Below the pieces are notes generated by a model. That model did not search any database. It worked only from the letters and a program-made list of their open reading frames with translations, and had not been told where the DNA came from. The position numbers and the translations under genes are program-made. This document shows, in pieces, positions 24,784 through 32,383 of a stretch of DNA of 64,000 nt. Position 1 is the stretch's first letter. Each line of letters starts with the position of its first letter. Origin of the DNA: Candidatus Latescibacterota bacterium (GTDB lineage Bacteria > Latescibacterota > UBA2968 > UBA8231); NCBI GenBank assembly GCA_965243025.1, contig CBDETY010000003.1:640001-704000 (forward strand), in the 5' to 3' direction.

Positions 24784-25740
24784 ATGATCAGAATAGCCGG
24801 ATGGTGCCACGACCTTTCCGATTCCAACCTGAAGCGGCTGTGCCAGCTCGGGGTCGACTGCTGCGACGGCATGCCGCTGCCGGCGGACGACCGCGGCGTA
24901 TTCGATCTCGACGAGGCGCTGAAGATCAGGAAGAAGATCCACTCCTGGGGGATGCAGGTGAACCGCGTCAGCCTGCCGAACCTCGGCGAGGCCTTCATGG
25001 ACGGGAAGGAGGGGGCCGATGACAACCTCGACGCGGTCTGCGACGCGCTGCGGGTGCTCGGGGAAGCGGGGTATCCCCTCGGCAGGGTCAACTTCCATTA
25101 CAGCACCTACGACTGGATGGTCGGGGGGTACGAGGCCCCCCACCGGGGCGGCTACCTCGCCCGCGGCGGCAGCCTGGCGAGGGCGGAGGACAAGTCCCCG
25201 CCGCCGCCCGCCGAGGTGCAGGAGCAGCGCTGGTCGAGAGTGTGCGCCGCGTACGAGCGCCTCGTGCCGATCGCCGAGGAGAACGGGGTGAAGCTGATGA
25301 TGCACCCCTCGGATCCGCCCAACCCCGACGCCCTCTTCGGCGGCCTCGGGCTGCACCGGCTGATCGACGCCTTCCCCAGCCCGAGCGTGGGGTACCTGTA
25401 CTGCTGCGGCACCCGCGCCCAGGCCGGCGGCCTGCCCCTGGTGCTCGACGAGCTGCACAACTACGGCCGCAAGGGGAAGCTGTTCGAGGTCCACTTCCGC
25501 AACGTGCGCGCCAGCCTCGCCACCGCCGGCGCCTTCGAGGAGACCCTGCTCGACGACGGCGACATGAACATGTTCAAGATCCTGCTCGAGCTCAGGCGCG
25601 TCGGCTTCGACGGCTGCCTCAACCCCGACCACTACCCGCGTCTCGAGGGGGACGTCGTCAAGGTCGACGGCAACACCCACTCGTTCGCCTACTCGGTCGG
25701 GTACATCAAGGCGCTGCTCGCCGCCCTGGCCTGCGTGTAG
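24784..25740 (+). CDS. Mannonate dehydratase (UxuA)-like protein
   Basis: LVPIAEENGVKLMMHPSDPP, VHFRNV, GDMNM, PDH. Confidence 0.75.
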   Translation: MIRIAGWCHDLSDSNLKRLCQLGVDCCDGMPLPADDRGVFDLDEALKIRKKIHSWGMQVNRVSLPNLGEAFMDGKEGADDNLDAVCDALRVLGEAGYPLGRVNFHYSTYDWMVGGYEAPHRGGYLARGGSLARAEDKSPPPPAEVQEQRWSRVCAAYERLVPIAEENGVKLMMHPSDPPNPDALFGGLGLHRLIDAFPSPSVGYLYCCGTRAQAGGLPLVLDELHNYGRKGKLFEVHFRNVRASLATAGAFEETLLDDGDMNMFKILLELRRVGFDGCLNPDHYPRLEGDVVKVDGNTHSFAYSVGYIKALLAALACV

Positions 25741-25915
25741 GGGTTCCTGTAATCCAAGTGACGAAAGTCCCGCAGACCGCCCCGCGCATCGCCGGCCAAC
25801 ACCAAATCTGCAGTCTGCGCGACGACAATCAGCTTGAGGAAAGCACCGCTTTCCGTCGTGCGCCGGAAATTGAAAATGGCTCCTGAATGCCGGATTACCT
25901 GGAGTCGTTGACGCC

Positions 25916-26342: not shown

Positions 26343-26460
26343 CTAAAAAATAGGAACTTATACCGGTGGGTTACGGAAGCTGATTTCTTAGCTTTCAGCT
26401 TCCCGGCGTGAGAGCCGAAAAAAAGGGCCTCAGGGAAACACTTTGAAGGGGAGATGTCCT

Positions 26461-26760
26461 ATGGCCGCTTACCAGACATTTCATCAGGCATATGATGAAG
26501 CCATTCTGAGAATCGGATGGAAACAGATACAGAATGGAGCAGCCGCATTTCAGGAGGTGGAATTAGAGATAGAGTCCGTATTAGTTTCAGAACTACGATC
26601 TCATAAGAAGGCTCGTTTTATCGAGGTCAATAATGCGTTAATGATTCAGCTGACTGATGACGGGAAAAACGCCTTTATTGCATTGGCAATGGAGCGGAAA
26701 CAATCAGCTGATCAGTACACAGAAAAGAGCTTGATGGAGGCTCTCTTACTCACCTCCTGA
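26461..26760 (+). CDS. Hypothetical protein (transposon cargo)
   Basis: 99 aa ORF with GGGGAG RBS-like sequence upstream. Confidence 0.55.
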   Translation: MAAYQTFHQAYDEAILRIGWKQIQNGAAAFQEVELEIESVLVSELRSHKKARFIEVNNALMIQLTDDGKNAFIALAMERKQSADQYTEKSLMEALLLTS

Positions 26761-26958
26761 TTCTTCCTCACCTTCCGTGCCGCTTCTGTCACCTTGTATC
26801 CGCTCGATCTCTAACAGCTTCAAGCAGAGATCGATACGTTGATTAAGACAGTTACTCGGATCCGCGATGAACTTTTTCAGATCCATCTTTAGGCTGAGTA
26901 CTGCCGCATCTGTGCTGAGTGACGGTTGTTCTTTTTTGCTGGTTTCCACTTGAATCAT
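26746..26958 (-). CDS. Hypothetical protein (transposon cargo)
   Basis: 70 aa ORF preceded by AAGGAG. Confidence 0.5.
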   Translation of the reverse strand: MIQVETSKKEQPSLSTDAAVLSLKMDLKKFIADPSNCLNQRIDLCLKLLEIERIQGDRSGTEGEEESGGE

Positions 26959-26972
26959 TCTCCTTGAGCGTG

Positions 26973-27007
26973 AAAAACGTCCCTCCGCGCAGGAGCAGAG
27001 GGGCGTT
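26973..27007 (-). terminator. Probable intrinsic terminator
   Basis: Minus strand AACGCCCCTC..GAGGGACGTT stem running into a T tract, just after the 27035 stop. Confidence 0.55.
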
Positions 27008-27034
27008 GGTGTTTTCGATTCGCGTCAGGTTGAC

Positions 27035-27286
27035 CTATTTCAGGCGCCGGTAGAAGCCATCCTGAATCATCTCGATTTTACCCTGACGTGGAAGTTGTCG
27101 AGTCAAAACTTCTGAAAGAGAATTATATGGGTTCTCTGCTCTTGATTTTGTCTTTTTCAAAATCCTGTCAAACCGAACCCTGACCTTGAGATCGGCAGCA
27201 TAGAAAGTGCACCCGCAGGGTACGAAACTCACGATTTCATCCCATACGGCTTGTTTCCATGAGATTCTCTTTTCAGACTGGCTCAT
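27035..27286 (-). CDS. Small winged-helix-like protein (resembles DpnI C-terminal wH domain)
   Basis: AGGAGG upstream; SWKQAVWDEI..F..NP..SLSEVLTRQLPRQGKIEMIQDGFYRR. Confidence 0.55.
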   Translation of the reverse strand: MSQSEKRISWKQAVWDEIVSFVPCGCTFYAADLKVRVRFDRILKKTKSRAENPYNSLSEVLTRQLPRQGKIEMIQDGFYRRLK

Positions 27287-27334
27287 CTTGCTCGGTTCCG
27301 CCTCCTTCCCGGTTCCGGTTCGGCGAATCCGCTC

Positions 27335-27350
27335 ACCGGTCATGACCGGT
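27335..27350. promoter_or_regulatory. Perfect 16-bp palindrome, candidate operator
   Basis: ACCGGTCATGACCGGT in the intergenic region upstream of the wH-like gene. Confidence 0.35.
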
Positions 27351-27384
27351 CAGGGATCGCCAGCAAGCCGGTGGGGTTCCCCCT

Positions 27385-27624
27385 CTATGTAGATATGGAT
27401 ACGGAAAGGAATGATCCAGATCGGCTTGGATGTATTATCAATAAATTTGCTTCATGCGGTTTTCGATCTATGTGATGATTCCACTCATCGATTCCGGACT
27501 TGATGGTGGCCGGGGTCAGGAGGCGCCAGCTTTTCTGGTCAGCCACCATCTCGCGGAGGGAATTGCTCTTCCTTGACTTGAAATCTTCCCCTCCTACCAG
27601 AATTTCAGCATAACAAAGGTCCAT
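27385..27624 (-). CDS. Hypothetical protein (transposon cargo)
   Basis: 79 aa ORF within a tightly packed minus-strand run. Confidence 0.4.
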   Translation of the reverse strand: MDLCYAEILVGGEDFKSRKSNSLREMVADQKSWRLLTPATIKSGIDEWNHHIDRKPHEANLLIIHPSRSGSFLSVSIST

Positions 27625-27929
27625 CTAAGCCACTCGGATAGGGATTTTCGTCTAGAAAGACGTGGGTTAGGGGATAGTATGTTAGGTTCCTCGCATAGCC
27701 TACGGATAAGACTCATGTCTTTTGTGATCGTCTCATTGAGGAGGTGTAATGATTCCCTAGGCATACCCGATCCATTATCTTCCGAAGCTAGGCCAATGGT
27801 GTTTCTAAGGTGAGATTGGATGTCCTCAGTTGACATGCCTCTGCTCTTAAAGTCTCTGGCACACATTAGAGCAACGATAATTCTAAGAGAGTATATGTGT
27901 GCCAGTAGCTGATGTTCTTGACATGACAT
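27594..27929 (-). CDS. Hypothetical protein (transposon cargo)
   Basis: 111 aa ORF starting 3 bp after the upstream stop. Confidence 0.45.
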   Translation of the reverse strand: MSCQEHQLLAHIYSLRIIVALMCARDFKSRGMSTEDIQSHLRNTIGLASEDNGSGMPRESLHLLNETITKDMSLIRRLCEEPNILSPNPRLSRRKSLSEWLRWTFVMLKFW

Positions 27930-27932
27930 ATA

Positions 27933-28187
27933 TCATACCTCTGGTATGTTAAATTCATCCACTATATTCTGTACTGGAATGTCTCTGTTAATACACCACT
28001 CAACGGCCGATTGCGTTGTGAAAAGAACTTTCCAACTATTCGTCCTATCTTGAGTCAAATAATAGATGTTTCCTCTGGATCGGTACCGAAATAGCTTTTC
28101 GAGTTTGGTGGAACATGTGTCTATGGGTTCCGCATTCTCGGTGTTAAAAGCCATCTGTCCGTCAATAGTCTCTCCGATTATTTTCAT
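27933..28187 (-). CDS. Hypothetical protein (transposon cargo)
   Basis: 84 aa ORF with GAGGGAG RBS. Confidence 0.6.
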   Translation of the reverse strand: MKIIGETIDGQMAFNTENAEPIDTCSTKLEKLFRYRSRGNIYYLTQDRTNSWKVLFTTQSAVEWCINRDIPVQNIVDEFNIPEV

Positions 28188-28196
28188 AATACTCCC

Positions 28197-28445
28197 TCAG
28201 TCTCGTAGATCCGGGACCACAGCGGCGACTCTCGCCGCTATTCCAGTCTGACGGCCCAGAGCGGATAGCTCGCTCAGGGCCTTCTGGCGTTTCTGCTCCG
28301 CCCGATTGCAAGACATGGCTACCTGATGGATTTCTTCATGGTATGGACGCGAGAGGAGATGGGCGAACTCCGGCTTGCGGTTAGTGTCATGCACAATCCA
28401 CGACCGCGCTCTTCCAGTTACCCGGTAGCTAACCTGAATCGCCAT
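28197..28445 (-). CDS. Hypothetical protein (transposon cargo)
   Basis: MAIQVSYRV.., AAGGA upstream, overlaps the previous stop. Confidence 0.45.
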   Translation of the reverse strand: MAIQVSYRVTGRARSWIVHDTNRKPEFAHLLSRPYHEEIHQVAMSCNRAEQKRQKALSELSALGRQTGIAARVAAVVPDLRD

Positions 28446-28632
28446 CAGCCGGTCCTTTCGATCCTTCTGAGGTGTCATCTGGCCGATTGGGCTTACGCAG
28501 CGACGGATCTGGCGGGTTGGCGGTGGCGAAGATGGCCTGAGCCAGCTCCTCCGGGGTGCAGTCGATCTTCAGGCGCCACTCAGGGCGGCCCTTCTGCTTG
28601 GCGCTGTCGTCTGAATCTGCGCGGTCAGTCAT
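28429..28632 (-). CDS. Small hypothetical protein with KID.TPEELA.A.F motif
   Basis: 67 aa, KGRP..LKIDCTPEELAQAIF. Confidence 0.55.
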   Translation of the reverse strand: MTDRADSDDSAKQKGRPEWRLKIDCTPEELAQAIFATANPPDPSLRKPNRPDDTSEGSKGPADGDSG

Positions 28633-28653
28633 GCTCGGAAATTACCCCCCGGC

Positions 28654-29484
28654 TCATTCTGGGTCAATTACGAAAGCGTCGTAGGAGACGGGCAGGCTGA
28701 CCCGCTGGCCTACGGCCTGAAGATGCTCTATTCCATTAGAAGGTTCTTCTGTGAATCCGAGCGGCTCCCACATGGCTGCGGAGTCCCGGACCATGATGAC
28801 GGCCCGCCCGTCAGGGGCCAACATCATGTGGATCTTGTCCACGTCCTTTGCGCTCAGGAGTCCGTCATGGCCGTGCAACACGAGGATCTGGTCGTACGGC
28901 TCCGTGGGATACCAGTGACCGAATGAGCAGTTGTGCAGCCGATCTGCGAATAACGGGTTCCTGCTGGCGCACACGCGGAGCATGTTTTCCGACAGGTCGA
29001 TTCCGCAGTAGTTCTGGGGTCGGATGTCCGGGCAGTTTCTCAGTAACCAGCCGGTGCCGCAGCCTACGTCGAGGATGCGCTGGCCGGTCAGATCGCCCAA
29101 CAGGGCCAGGAGGGGCTCGCCTCCGTGGTCATTAACCATTGCCTGATCGTACTGGTGGGCAACCTCATCATATGGCGTCTCGTAGTGCATCCGGGCGCGA
29201 TTCAGGATGGTGGTTTTGGCTGGCGGCCATCCCATCGTCCAGTAGTAGTGCCCGTTCAGCGTCAGGCTGCGGTAGTACTGGCGATTACCGTACCTGCGCC
29301 GGTAGCCGTAGGTCTGGACCATCTCCACGACTTCCTCGAACTCGTCCTCCGGCCAATTCACCCTGACGGTGTAGAAATGAGGTTTTTCGGGTATCGTCTT
29401 GGCGAATCGGAACGAGGCCGCGCCTACCAGCTCGGCCACCCGGAAAAGGCGCTCATGACTAATGGTGGGATCATTATCGAACAT
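28654..29484 (-). CDS. Class I SAM-dependent methyltransferase with an extra aromatic-rich N-terminal domain
   Basis: YDEVAHQYD, ILDVGCGTG, GIDLSENML, LAPDG; N-terminal FAKTIPEKPHFYTVR..YYWTMG..ILNRA. Confidence 0.8.
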   Translation of the reverse strand: MFDNDPTISHERLFRVAELVGAASFRFAKTIPEKPHFYTVRVNWPEDEFEEVVEMVQTYGYRRRYGNRQYYRSLTLNGHYYWTMGWPPAKTTILNRARMHYETPYDEVAHQYDQAMVNDHGGEPLLALLGDLTGQRILDVGCGTGWLLRNCPDIRPQNYCGIDLSENMLRVCASRNPLFADRLHNCSFGHWYPTEPYDQILVLHGHDGLLSAKDVDKIHMMLAPDGRAVIMVRDSAAMWEPLGFTEEPSNGIEHLQAVGQRVSLPVSYDAFVIDPE

Positions 29485-29509
29485 GGCTGATTCCTTGATA
29501 GGGGAAGGA

Positions 29510-30091
29510 CTACCCGGCCAGCAGAATGCCCAGATAACTGCCGTATCGGATCAGTCCATCGGGGTCCGTGATGACGATCTTGCCATCGGAAATTTCACAC
29601 GTCGGGGCCGTCTGGAAGGACGAGGCGAACAGCTCGCCCCAGGCACCAAACTCCATCCAGTTGGAGCCGCCTACATCGTCGTACCCGGTTACGTCGACAA
29701 TGTCCTCTGAGACCCTGCTGCGTTCCAGATAGACGCCGAGGATATTGTCTTCCGAGAAGTTTTCGTTCGTGATGGTCCAGGATCGGGCCCCTCGACTGTT
29801 CCCGGAACCCGCGTGAAGTCCTACTTCGATGAAGGCGAACAGATTCCCAAAGGTAGTGGTAGTACTGCCGGTATCGACCGCTACGGTGTCGTAAACCGTG
29901 ACGGTGTTTGTGTCTGGATTATCGCCTTGGTAGACGACAGTTTCACCGGTGATATTGATCACCACACAGGCGGTGGTATCGGCGGCTTGTTCGGCGGTGG
30001 TCTTGGGAGAGGTGGCCGGGCCCATCGGGCCCTCGGGGCCCTGACAGGCCGACAGCAGGTAGGCGGCGAGCAGGATGGCTGAATACTGCAT
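29510..30091 (-). CDS. Lipoprotein with short collagen-like GXY motif
   Basis: Lipobox LLSAC followed by QGPEGPMGP; AAGGAG RBS. Confidence 0.75.
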   Translation of the reverse strand: MQYSAILLAAYLLSACQGPEGPMGPATSPKTTAEQAADTTACVVINITGETVVYQGDNPDTNTVTVYDTVAVDTGSTTTTFGNLFAFIEVGLHAGSGNSRGARSWTITNENFSEDNILGVYLERSRVSEDIVDVTGYDDVGGSNWMEFGAWGELFASSFQTAPTCEISDGKIVITDPDGLIRYGSYLGILLAG

Positions 30092-30150
30092 GGTCCCTGT
30101 CTCCTTGAGGCGGGTGGGTTGACCCCGGCTCCGCTGTGGGGCCGGGCCTT

Positions 30151-30292
30151 GTCAAGCCTACACGCCAAGAGACAGCGGGAAGGATCCTGCTATTCGCCAG
30201 CTGAGAGGTAGCTAGCCCCCCAGCTCGGATGGTACGGCTGTTGTATTCACAGGAGACCCGACATCAGGGACCTCCTGACGCATAGACTTGAC
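30151..30292 (-). ncRNA. Candidate 142-nt rod-shaped structured RNA, family unknown
   Basis: Minus strand 5' GUCAAGUCUAUGCGUCAGGAGGU pairs with 3' GUCUCUUGGCGUGUAGGCUUGAC over 23 contiguous bp (16 Watson-Crick + 7 G-U); inner CGGG/CCCG and UCCUG/CAGGA; apical AGCUGGGGGG/CCUCUCAGCU. Confidence 0.55.
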
Positions 30293-30380
30293 GGGTGGTA
30301 ATTTGCAGCCTGAGCGGCTGGCCATCAAGTCAATTCTGCGCTAATTGCTTATTCCAGCTTGTGTTAGGTGGTTGATCTCG

Positions 30381-31547
30381 TCAGATCGCGATCCCCCGCT
30401 CGCCCCCGGTCAGCTCGTCATATCGAAGACGCTTTCCGGTCATACCTCGGGCGAGAACCACCATCATCTCAATCGTGTCCTTGTCGCGGATGTTATGACG
30501 GCCGGCGAACTCGTTCAGGTATCGCTGCAGGTGCTTGAATGACATACGGAAGAAAGTACCTCCATAAGCCCGTTTCAGCACCGCCCAGTATCCCTCGGCG
30601 GAGTTGGTATGCGCCATGCCCCGGACGTATTCCCCGACACCGTGATTCACGGACTCATGGTTGGGGAGCCCCTTGTAGCCGTGGTGCTGATCGGTGTACT
30701 TCTTGGCATTCGGCTTGACGTTCGCCATCACCTGAGCCTGAAGCGTGATGGCCGTCACGTCAGGCACCGTTACGGCCCGGATTTCATTGGTTTTCCGATC
30801 CACGATTGCGACGACCGCCTGTTTGCCCACCGTGCCGCGCCCTTTCCGTAGCTTCTTGCGAGCGTGCTTGTTGGGCTCCTTGCCGCCGAAGTAGCTCTCG
30901 TCAATTTCCACCGGACCTTCCATCAGCTCGCCGGTGTTTTTCACGAATGCTTCCCGGATGCGGTGCATCAGGAACCAGGCACTCTTGTACGTGATTCCAA
31001 GGTGACGGCGTACCTGTATGGCGCTCACACCTCGCAGATGAGTGGTCACCAGAAACAGGCCGATTGCCCACTTCTGGTACCCCAACTTGGAGCCCTCCAT
31101 CACGGTACCCTTTTTCACCGAGAAAAACTGATGACAGTCCCGACACCGATACGGCATTTTCGGGTGCTTCGAAACCGAGGTGCTGACCGATCCGCAGGCC
31201 GGACAATACCGCTGGTCATTTGGCCACCTCTGCTCCTCGAACCATTTCTCCGCCGCCTTGTCGTCAGGGAACATGCGCATCAGTTCAGGGAGAGTAATCC
31301 CCTTGCGGTAGGCCCGTCCGGGTCCCTTGGAGCTATAGTTTGTCGGAAACTTGCTCATATCGGTATATGCTCGCTCATCGTCGTAATAAATATCAGCCAT
31401 TATCCGCTTTTTGTCAAGGTCTAAGTCGTTGTTTTCAAAGAGTTTAGGCTTAAGGAGACGGTGAGGGATCGCCCTGGTGGGCTCTGGCGGTACACCCGGT
31501 GAATTGGGCTTGACAACTCGTTTCTTAGTCCTGAACTTAGTACGCAT
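30381..31547 (-). CDS. IS1595-family DDE transposase (alternative start at 31358)
   Basis: Zn ribbon CPACG..YRCRDC, TYKSAWFLMHRIREA, VEIDESYFGG, YTD..GY, VNH..EYVRG.AHTNSAEGYW, HLQRYLNEF. Confidence 0.93.
   Translation of the reverse strand: MRTKFRTKKRVVKPNSPGVPPEPTRAIPHRLLKPKLFENNDLDLDKKRIMADIYYDDERAYTDMSKFPTNYSSKGPGRAYRKGITLPELMRMFPDDKAAEKWFEEQRWPNDQRYCPACGSVSTSVSKHPKMPYRCRDCHQFFSVKKGTVMEGSKLGYQKWAIGLFLVTTHLRGVSAIQVRRHLGITYKSAWFLMHRIREAFVKNTGELMEGPVEIDESYFGGKEPNKHARKKLRKGRGTVGKQAVVAIVDRKTNEIRAVTVPDVTAITLQAQVMANVKPNAKKYTDQHHGYKGLPNHESVNHGVGEYVRGMAHTNSAEGYWAVLKRAYGGTFFRMSFKHLQRYLNEFAGRHNIRDKDTIEMMVVLARGMTGKRLRYDELTGGERGIAI
31389..31417 (-). promoter_or_regulatory. Possible sigma70 promoter for the shorter transposase form
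   Basis: TTGACA-N17-GATATT, about 30 bp upstream of ATG 31358. Confidence 0.35.
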
Positions 31548-31648
31548 AACGCCCTCCTTACTGTAGGTGGGTGGAGGTCAGCAAAAAGCTCATCCCGCGA
31601 ATCGAGAGTGGCTTTCTGCTGACTGTGGATGCGAGAAGTAACGGAATC

Positions 31649-31688
31649 AGCCGATCTGGTCGTCGTCAGCGACCTGATCGGCTTTTTT
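31649..31688 (+). terminator. Intrinsic terminator not preceded by a plus-strand CDS
   Basis: AGCCGATC-T-GGTCG-loop-CGACC-T-GATCGGCT followed by TTTTT. Confidence 0.65.
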
Positions 31689-31780
31689 CGTGCTTCTCGT
31701 CGAAATTCACATACAATATACATATCCCGCTGGGTTTCCGCAGGGGGCGGGATACTTCCACATATGACTGGGTACTGAAA

Positions 31781-32254
31781 ATGGATGCTCTCAAACCCTT
31801 TAGCGATGTCCTCGTTTCGCTACTGCCCGAATCCGATTCAGGCAAAATAATCTGGCTGATTGTTTTCGGTCTTTTCGTCTTGATTGTAACTGGACGTCTG
31901 AAATTGGAATGGATTGGACAAGGGATTCTATGGATCGTACAAGTCGTTATACGGATTGCAAAACACTTTTGGAGCCAAGCACAGAACAGGAAGGAACGAG
32001 AACGGATCAGGCGTCAACAGGCACGGGATAGTAGGGAACAACAACGGATCAAGCGTCAATATTGTTCAATTGGAAGACATTTCTTCCAAGGGATAGAGGG
32101 GATTAGGACTGTGACTTTTACTTGTAGATTCTGTCGGATAGAAAAGAAATTTGGCGAAATCGAATTTGATGAAGATTTTGAGTGGTGTTCCTATGGCCTT
32201 GAGGGGTCCGGGTGGGGTACATTGAAAGACCATGATGCCACCAAGGGTAGCTGA
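31781..32254 (+). CDS. Membrane protein with charged linker and C-terminal Cys/His cluster (transposon cargo)
   Basis: TM IIWLIVFGLFVLIV; R/Q-rich helix; YCSIGRH..TCRFC. Confidence 0.6.
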   Translation: MDALKPFSDVLVSLLPESDSGKIIWLIVFGLFVLIVTGRLKLEWIGQGILWIVQVVIRIAKHFWSQAQNRKERERIRRQQARDSREQQRIKRQYCSIGRHFFQGIEGIRTVTFTCRFCRIEKKFGEIEFDEDFEWCSYGLEGSGWGTLKDHDATKGS

Positions 32255-32383
32255 ATACCTGTGGGCTGTTAATCCGGAAAATCGACCATCTGAGCAGGGT
32301 AACATCAAAGCCAAAAGCTAAGAGTCATTCACCCGTAACCCTCCGGTATAAGTTCCAAAAAATAGGACAAAGCCAGGTCGCCG

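Follow-up and report, generated by a model that had tools for sequence, protein, structure and literature searches.

The window (the whole 64,000-nt stretch analysed, taken from the genome here called G000) contains a 6,004-bp transposon of the IS1595 family with passenger genes (26353..32356, minus strand). Its transposase gene (30381..31547, minus strand) encodes a protein of 388 aa that matched the Pfam families DDE_Tnp_IS1595 (3.4e-33) and Zn_ribbon_IS1595 (9.3e-08). Read along the minus strand, the transposase is followed by the RNA that is the subject of this report, a predicted lipoprotein of 193 aa without Pfam family (29510..30091, minus strand; N-terminus ...LLSAC), a class I SAM methyltransferase of 276 aa (28654..29484, minus strand; Methyltransf_23 at 2e-10) and small ORFs. 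Pfam searches with 10 other ORFs of the transposon yielded no match.

The transposon occurs in a second, identical copy in the same genome (G000:C3:1271162-1277165). The exact repeat spans 26351-32356 and C3:1271160-1277165 and includes, by chance, 2 bp of the target site duplication. Both copies end in terminal inverted repeats of 24 bp that match at 23 of 24 positions (GGAACTTATACCGG(T/A)GGGTTACGG), and each is flanked by a duplication of 8 bp, the length typical of the IS1595 family: AAAAAATA at the window copy and CACTTTTA at the second copy. Because of these inverted repeats and the separate duplication at each copy, we define the 6,004-bp IS1595-family transposon as the mobile unit. The second copy (G000:C3:1271100-1277230) apparently interrupts an ORF; across the duplication its flanks read ...GIDYGIHFYARYAEERG..., which we take to resemble a motif of MMPL/RND-type transporters. 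A stretch of ~540 bp just outside the window transposon (25201-25741) has four more copies in G000, with 78-83% identity.

The RNA is encoded on the minus strand, where arm A (30270..30292) pairs with arm A' (30151..30173), that is, 30292-30270 with 30173-30151. ViennaRNA drew 21 bp of this closing helix. Reading the sequence directly, we obtained the 23 bp with seven G-U pairs and no other mismatch that a first-pass annotation of the locus had described. From the strand-specific wobble pairs the same annotation had argued for selection at the RNA level. The minus strand folded with a minimum free energy (MFE) of −68.8 kcal/mol (z −4.93; 0 of 200 shuffles were as good), compared with −50.8 kcal/mol (z −2.36) for the plus strand. 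Among the 105 copies of the RNA family described below, the sense strand folded better than the antisense strand in 81, the mean difference being −4.5 kcal/mol. Two other features of the first-pass annotation, a large, asymmetric internal loop rich in A and C and an apical stem of 10 bp, were on the other hand missing from both the MFE and the comparative structure, so that its observation holds for the closing helix and the strand-specific G-U pairs but not for the inner bubble and apical stem. What fills the interior of the hairpin is a conserved core with the helices B, C, D and P4.

The feature also exceeds the hairpin originally noted at 30151-30292. Segment B' (AGGCCCGGC, 30149-30141) lies 3' of it and, as judged from alignments and fold, pairs with segment B (GUCGGGUCU, 30262-30254), which contains the invariant GUCGGGU; the resulting helix 1 is 97.2% paired across copies and has five covarying pairs. 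Between B and the closing arm A' lie the core (30186..30253, minus strand), made up of helix C/C', an internal loop AAUACAACA / GAAUAG, helix D/D' and the P4 hairpin with its loop U+AGCU, and a pyrimidine-rich, anti-Shine-Dalgarno-like linker L3 (AUCCUUCCCGCU; 30174..30185, minus strand). The invariant loop sequences of the family read UGAAUACAACA and GAAUAG in the window copy. Downstream of B' follows a putative expression platform (30100..30129, minus strand) that consists of B'' (GCCGGGGUC, 30129-30121), an A''-like segment (GUCAACCC) and the Shine-Dalgarno (SD) sequence AAGGAGA (30106-30100). B'' is the predicted alternative pairing partner of B'. The functional unit extends as far as the SD and the ATG (30091) of the lipoprotein gene.

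We searched for relatives of this RNA at the DNA level in 61 genomes (G000 and 60 relatives) and recovered a copy with 93% identity from the sister species, G001, as well as short, highly conserved matches in other genera and families. The blocks GUCGGGU, UGAAUACAAYAGCC, GGYRAAUAGG and GCCCGRC were shared across these loci and are enclosed by a long outer helix, which had a different sequence in each copy; the invariant core of the family is GUCGGGU, UGAAUACAAYAGCC, GRAAUAG and GCCCGRC. A motif scan with one genome per species yielded at least 66 loci (the pattern loci, labelled by L-numbers). According to the record titles, in which the labels of metagenome-assembled genomes (MAGs) may be inexact, the listed loci comprise 24 of Gammaproteobacteria, 15 of Alphaproteobacteria, eight of Gemmatimonadota, five of Latescibacterota, three of Chloroflexota, two of Acidobacteriota and one each of Poribacteria, Binatia, Nitrospirales and Limisphaerales. 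Four further loci have no group name in the title, and L046 is a chance match inside a coding region. The motif scan of viral contigs gave no match. Many of the bin names resemble what we take, from naming habits, to be sponge or coral microbiome bins; we hold any sponge specificity only loosely.

A covariance model (R1; 69 copies, 120 positions, 26 pairs, arm A not included) gave 109 matches, of which 105 are distinct copies, labelled as at least nine phyla. G000 has at least six copies, a lower bound because 150 of 1,290 candidates were scored. In the class to which G000 belongs, 72 of 132 genomes were positive, with 1-14 copies each, and none was found in the other 60. The distribution is patchy by genus: 26 of 31 genomes were positive in genus g14 and 15 of 15 in g22, as against 0 of 8 in g16 and 0 of 5 in g13. 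We also observed pairs of leader copies close together, in tandem (L031, L092), divergent (L110) or convergent (L024, L079) orientation, and short forms of 83-84 nt that lack P4 and come nearer to sRNA-Xcc1, a known RNA discussed below (L060:3373-3455 and L068:675-758). The short form of L068 adjoins the left inverted repeat of its insertion sequence and carries compensatory changes in the otherwise invariant B:B' helix.

Covarying homologues, proposed earlier as a check on the fold, were found. In the nested core, 94.5% of cells were paired over the 109 matches (105 distinct) compared with 82.8% after shuffling, and 0 of 500 shuffles reached the observed value. The core helices are B:B' (9 bp), C:C' (6 bp), D:D' (4 bp), P4a (3 bp) and P4b (4 bp). 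Two-sided changes occurred in 19 of the 26 pairs (331 cells), slid controls remaining at or below 51%; the alignment behind these counts was fitted to the model, and paralogues make up many of the copies. The core helices were already visible in plain MAFFT alignments made before model fitting.

MAFFT was unable to align arm A with A', and we therefore used duplex energies of cognate and non-cognate arms together with a rank-wise pile-up. Arm A bound its own A' with a mean of −27.7 kcal/mol, compared with −12.4 kcal/mol for the arms of other copies, and 59 of 69 cognate pairs beat the 5th percentile of the non-cognates. Helix A has a median length of 18 bp, and four to six pair types were present at every rank. 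Its sequence differs in every copy, yet each arm stays paired with its own partner. The gap between A' and B' is 0-1 nt in 99 of 105 copies. Since the segments follow one another as A, B, core, A' and B', helices A:A' and B:B' cross. These two are the best-supported long-range helices and may form together as a pseudoknot or alternate. We conclude that the hairpin is a real, widely conserved folded RNA and one copy of a large family.

The apical loop of P4 is a pentaloop in 98 of 105 copies, and its first base is U in 95. The last four bases are self-complementary in 67 of these 98 loops (30213-30209 in the window), where chance would give ~1/16, and eight of the 14 tetramer types are palindromes (AGCU, AAUU, GAUC, CAUG, UGCA, UAUA, GGCC and CGCG). 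Shuffling of whole stem-loops, a design that is uninformative here, gave 21.8 palindromes against 24 observed. The loop sequences suggest that two leaders could dimerise through kissing loops. Between D and P4, 38 of 105 copies carry an internal block with the sequence RYCCGRY, often ACCCGGC. It could pair with B and would then be a possible third competitor for this segment, besides B' and the CCCG of linker L1.

IS1595 transposase homologues were found in 14 of the 66 listed pattern loci, plus three weak ones, against an estimated chance background of a few percent (from ~20 paralogues in the 6.8 Mb of G000). In G001, the gene order is identical to that of the window transposon, and at the DNA level the two transposase genes share 77% identity. 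The transposase-RNA spacers are unrelated, which means that the homology begins exactly at arm A. In five further loci (L049, L068, L041, L034 and L020), related inverted repeats (GGrrnTTAT...) enclose a transposase, the RNA and an ORF within 2.3-3.0 kb. Four of these elements (L068, L041, L034 and L020) have 8-bp duplications and one has a 6-bp repeat. The position of the transposase varies: it may precede the RNA on the same strand or lie downstream of it in convergent orientation. Directly behind the RNA there is always the ORF, which makes this cargo ORF, not the transposase, the fixed partner of the RNA. The earlier suggestion of a transposase-associated RNA therefore applies to its residence in IS1595-family transposons, here and in the five other loci, but not to its partner. 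We conclude that the RNA travels between distant bacteria as cargo of IS1595-type transposons.

Subgroups of the IS1595 family that are marked '+' in ISfinder are insertion sequences with passenger genes. The present elements resemble them in the DDE_Tnp_IS1595 transposase with its N-terminal zinc ribbon, the short inverted repeats, the 8-bp duplications and the presence of extra genes; they differ in their recurrent passenger, which is the RNA leader with an exported-protein gene and sometimes a tRNA gene. Such tRNA genes lie inside the repeat-bounded elements of L068 (842-917 and 3107-3179; a tRNA-Asn(GTT) and an odd tRNA-like gene) and L034 (1929-2002; tRNA-Gly(GCC)); none was found in the window transposon. 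Contig C3 of G000 carries ~20 further IS1595-type transposase paralogues (e.g. 1024440-1025390, 6032965-6033924 and 853538-854470), which fall into two classes with 43-47% and 37-41% identity to the window transposase. Behind the members of one class come a terminator and a conserved ORF cluster; behind those of the other there are repeated non-coding blocks. These paralogues may belong to other cargo-carrying IS1595 elements.

Upstream of arm A, the window copy has the promoter-like motif TTGATG-N17-CAAATT that the first-pass annotation had pointed out (30328-30300, minus strand). The motif is present but weak: a promoter scan made no call, and CAAATT matches TATAAT at three of six positions. 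The G001 copy has TATATT at the corresponding place, and the window copy is thus without the good −10 box found in its relatives. A TANNNT box precedes arm A in 72 of 104 copies, at a distance of 2-12 nt (mostly 4-6 nt) from the first paired base.

Downstream of the RNA, 77 of the 104 copies with enough DNA have an SD and a same-strand ORF of 45 aa or more; in these 77 the start codon follows B' at a median distance of 43 nt (IQR 37-54 nt). The remaining 27 copies have no ORF by these criteria, several of them carrying short, SD-poor or apparently broken ORFs. The downstream ORFs are unrelated to each other, no Pfam family occurring in more than two of the 73 scanned. The types found among them are envelope or secreted proteins (TbpB_B_D, RTX, matrixin, astacin, CsgG, PEGA, LpoB and DUF805). 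An N-terminal hydrophobic stretch was present in 43 of 77 leader ORFs compared with 309 of 2,396 control ORFs of G000, where paralogues are not independent, and 16 leader ORFs have a lipobox-like motif. This enrichment of export signals was the only shared trait: the 73 scanned ORFs revealed no common metabolic theme pointing to a ligand. No terminator-like site follows the leader in the window. In two sets of MAGs labelled Gammaproteobacteria (L018, L032, L052, L060, L019 and L047; L021, L028, L050 and L071), the leader and a signal peptide (MQISEKLSRFFQGTA... or MKTLRKLLAGT...) are common to the loci and the mature proteins differ, a pattern that suggests shuffling of the 5' module.

We compared the pairing described above with pairings that involve the region around the SD. 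An imitation of B lies downstream of B' in 58 of 105 copies, and in many copies an imitation of A runs into the SD. The best duplex of L3-A'-B' with the downstream leader overlapped the SD in 68 of 77 copies. Cognate duplexes of A'B' with the leader had a mean of −32.7 kcal/mol and non-cognate ones −24.2 kcal/mol, and 22 of 77 cognates beat the 5th percentile; because the non-cognates are already strong and only these 22 exceed them, we rate the evidence for an SD-masking helix as moderate. The 3' half of the window leader alone folded into a hairpin of −58.9 kcal/mol (z −4.39) in which the SD is paired (GGAGACAG with CUGUCUCU). At full length, A:A' was kept, the SD was free and the fold with A:A' and B:B' (fold 1) won thermodynamically, so the window leader may simply be always on.

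The structure, its covariation, the position before ORFs and the carriage by transposons were all observed here, as was, in computed duplexes and folds, a competing pairing. The reading that we favour, at a probability of roughly 0.6, is that the RNA is a cis-acting, riboswitch-like translational leader of exported-protein cargo genes that is carried in IS1595-family transposons. Judging from the modelled pairings, the leader probably switches translation of the cargo gene; the switching itself, its direction and the kind of signal are what we infer. Transcription would start at or just before arm A. In fold 1, A:A' and B:B' would clamp the core (helices C and D and the loop UGAAUACAAYA / GRAAUAG), leaving the SD free. 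In fold 2, L3-A'-B' would pair with the downstream imitations of B and A, including the SD, and initiation would be blocked. A binder of the invariant core would favour fold 1 and thereby turn translation of the exported protein on. As the module works across phyla, its partner would most likely be a small molecule or other factor common to all bacteria.

Several of these observations would also suit a structured leader that senses nothing and serves as a stabilising 5' cap helix, processing site, thermometer or dimerisation module, giving constitutive expression of the cargo in new hosts. Helix A is long and 5'-terminal and starts where the transcript is presumed to start, the window leader is most stable in fold 1, the cargo genes have no function in common, and the P4 tetramers are self-complementary in two-thirds of the pentaloops. 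However, the internal-loop sequences are invariant across phyla, beyond what a stabiliser needs, and the downstream imitations of A and B, which include the SD, look like an expression platform. We regard a leader without sensing as unlikely.

Rfam 15 at the gathering threshold gave no match in the window; the RNA lies below every threshold of that release, in line with the first-pass annotation, which had called it a candidate novel RNA. In E-value mode, the sole notable match of the window was to sRNA-Xcc1 (RF02221), with 21.4 bits (E 0.37) against a gathering cut-off of 53 bits. The best scores among the relatives were 36.5 bits (E 0.0088) for the short variant of L060 and 31.7 bits for L066, and no match to sRNA-Xcc1 exceeded the cut-off in G000 or in 14 control genomes. 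In a full-length alignment to RF02221 (1-87), B:B', C:C' and the loop motifs coincide with helices of the model itself. The two RNAs share an outer helix (GnCGGG.../...CCCGnC) and a second helix, together with the internal loop AAUACAA / GAAUA and a small hairpin that closes the structure, and both occur on mobile DNA upstream of an ORF. Apart from the scores, all of which are below 53 bits, the present RNA differs in being about twice as long, in its additional 5' arm A, which pairs into the place of the third hairpin of sRNA-Xcc1 and crosses the outer helix, and in the addition of the P4 hairpin and a predicted SD-masking platform downstream. Since it fails the score test, we treat the window RNA as a distantly related and enlarged version of the sRNA-Xcc1 fold and not as a member of that family.

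sRNA-Xcc1 is reportedly called a trans-acting sRNA in the title of Chen et al. 2011, whereas the evidence on the present RNA points to control in cis. As far as the accessible parts of the sources go, sRNA-Xcc1 is a Northern-confirmed RNA of ~88 nt (PMC2996969), is located ahead of symE in the Xanthomonas integron cassette with the widest distribution (bioRxiv 10.1101/2025.06.18.660453) and upstream of an ORF6N gene in APSE phages (bioRxiv 10.1101/2020.03.17.996009), occurs in tandem arrays in a Xylella island (PMC12189769) and is among the families improved with R-scape in Rfam 15 (PMC11701678). In open full text, that is, outside subscription-only papers and supplements, we found no description of the leader reported here, of IS1595 elements carrying such a leader or of a cis role for sRNA-Xcc1.

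An independent trans-acting small RNA on mobile elements, as sRNA-Xcc1 was first described, with the downstream ORF a mere neighbour, would fit the weak but repeated likeness to RF02221 (21.4, 36.5 and 31.7 bits), the Northern band of sRNA-Xcc1 and the 27 copies that have no ORF by our criteria; the palindromic P4 loops could mediate RNA-RNA contacts. Riboswitch leaders, too, often show as small RNAs on Northern blots, which reduces the weight of that band. The tight distance to a start codon that is always on the same strand, the ability of the leader to pair with its own SD and the lack of a terminator-like site behind it in the window all speak against a trans-acting RNA. So does, in the accessible parts of the papers cited above, the position of sRNA-Xcc1 itself upstream of symE and of the ORF6N gene. 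This explanation is improbable, slightly more so than a leader without sensing.

No Rfam riboswitch model matched the window region 29900-30500 at E≤10. The c-di-GMP riboswitch classes, which are translational and regulate varied surface genes, nonetheless offer a parallel to the cis-acting leader that we propose: they likewise combine an aptamer-like core with covariation, a position in the 5' UTR and sequestration of the SD by alternative pairing (predicted in the present case), and they control diverse surface or secreted proteins and not one pathway. The present RNA differs from them in being transposon-borne and multi-copy and in a closing helix that crosses a second helix. More tentatively, the RNA could represent a new riboswitch class on the sRNA-Xcc1 fold that responds to a signal common to very different bacteria, e.g. 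a second messenger, an ion or a host-derived compound, and that IS1595 elements spread as a module of promoter, sensor and exported-protein gene. Such a riboswitch may act as a kissing-loop dimer through the self-complementary P4 loop. On this view, sRNA-Xcc1 would be a regulator in cis that has wrongly been taken for a trans-acting sRNA.

It is very unlikely that the element acts as DNA, whether as a miniature inverted-repeat element (MITE), as a binding site for the transposase or as an integron attC-like site for recombination in single-stranded form. The hairpin is an imperfect inverted repeat within a transposon, the module resembles a cassette with its conserved end and variable ORF, and G-T pairs are tolerated in single-stranded DNA. 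However, the arms differ between copies, even within G000, and it is the coding-sense strand that folds, preceded by a putative promoter and followed by an SD. DDE transposases, to which the transposase here belongs, act on double-stranded ends. These points led us to reject an attC-like site. A dispersed MITE with its own target site duplication, which the first-pass annotation had named as the finding that would overturn an RNA, is not what we found: the inverted repeats and duplications belong to the 6-kb transposon and not to the hairpin, and the bases next to the hairpin (..CCACCC / AAGGCC..) form no direct repeat.

The least credible suggestion, a 6S-like decoy of RNA polymerase or an RNA antitoxin, has in its favour the long terminal helix and rod-like outline of the single-sequence fold, which recall 6S RNA (RF00013), and the lack of an Rfam 6S match elsewhere in G000 at E≤0.001 (a model that also missed 9 of 14 control genomes). 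However, the region 29900-30500 gave no 6S match at E≤10, and comparison of the copies yields a core of several helices and no bubble. A 6S gene is a housekeeping gene that usually occurs once or twice per genome and is present in related genomes too, whereas the RNA here is mobile, sits inside a transposon, is present in multiple copies (at least six in G000), is patchily distributed among relatives (60 of the 132 class genomes yielded no copy) and is fixed just upstream of ORFs. These ORFs are many kinds of exported proteins with no single toxin family, and nothing suggests an antitoxin. Thus, the first-pass interpretation stands as far as a structured, IS1595-linked RNA below the Rfam thresholds and under RNA-level selection is concerned, and falls for the 6S-like and antitoxin readings.

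If the cis-acting leader that we propose is real, it would constitute a large orphan riboswitch-like class of more than 100 copies, labelled as at least nine phyla, that Rfam thresholds have missed, and its regulon would be defined by export and not by a metabolic pathway. The transposon family would carry a regulated expression module and not only a gene. This could explain how surface and secreted proteins are exchanged among uncultured, apparently host-associated bacteria and function in a new host straight away. In addition, sRNA-Xcc1, annotated in numerous pathogens of plants and animals, would have to be reinterpreted as a cis-acting leader.
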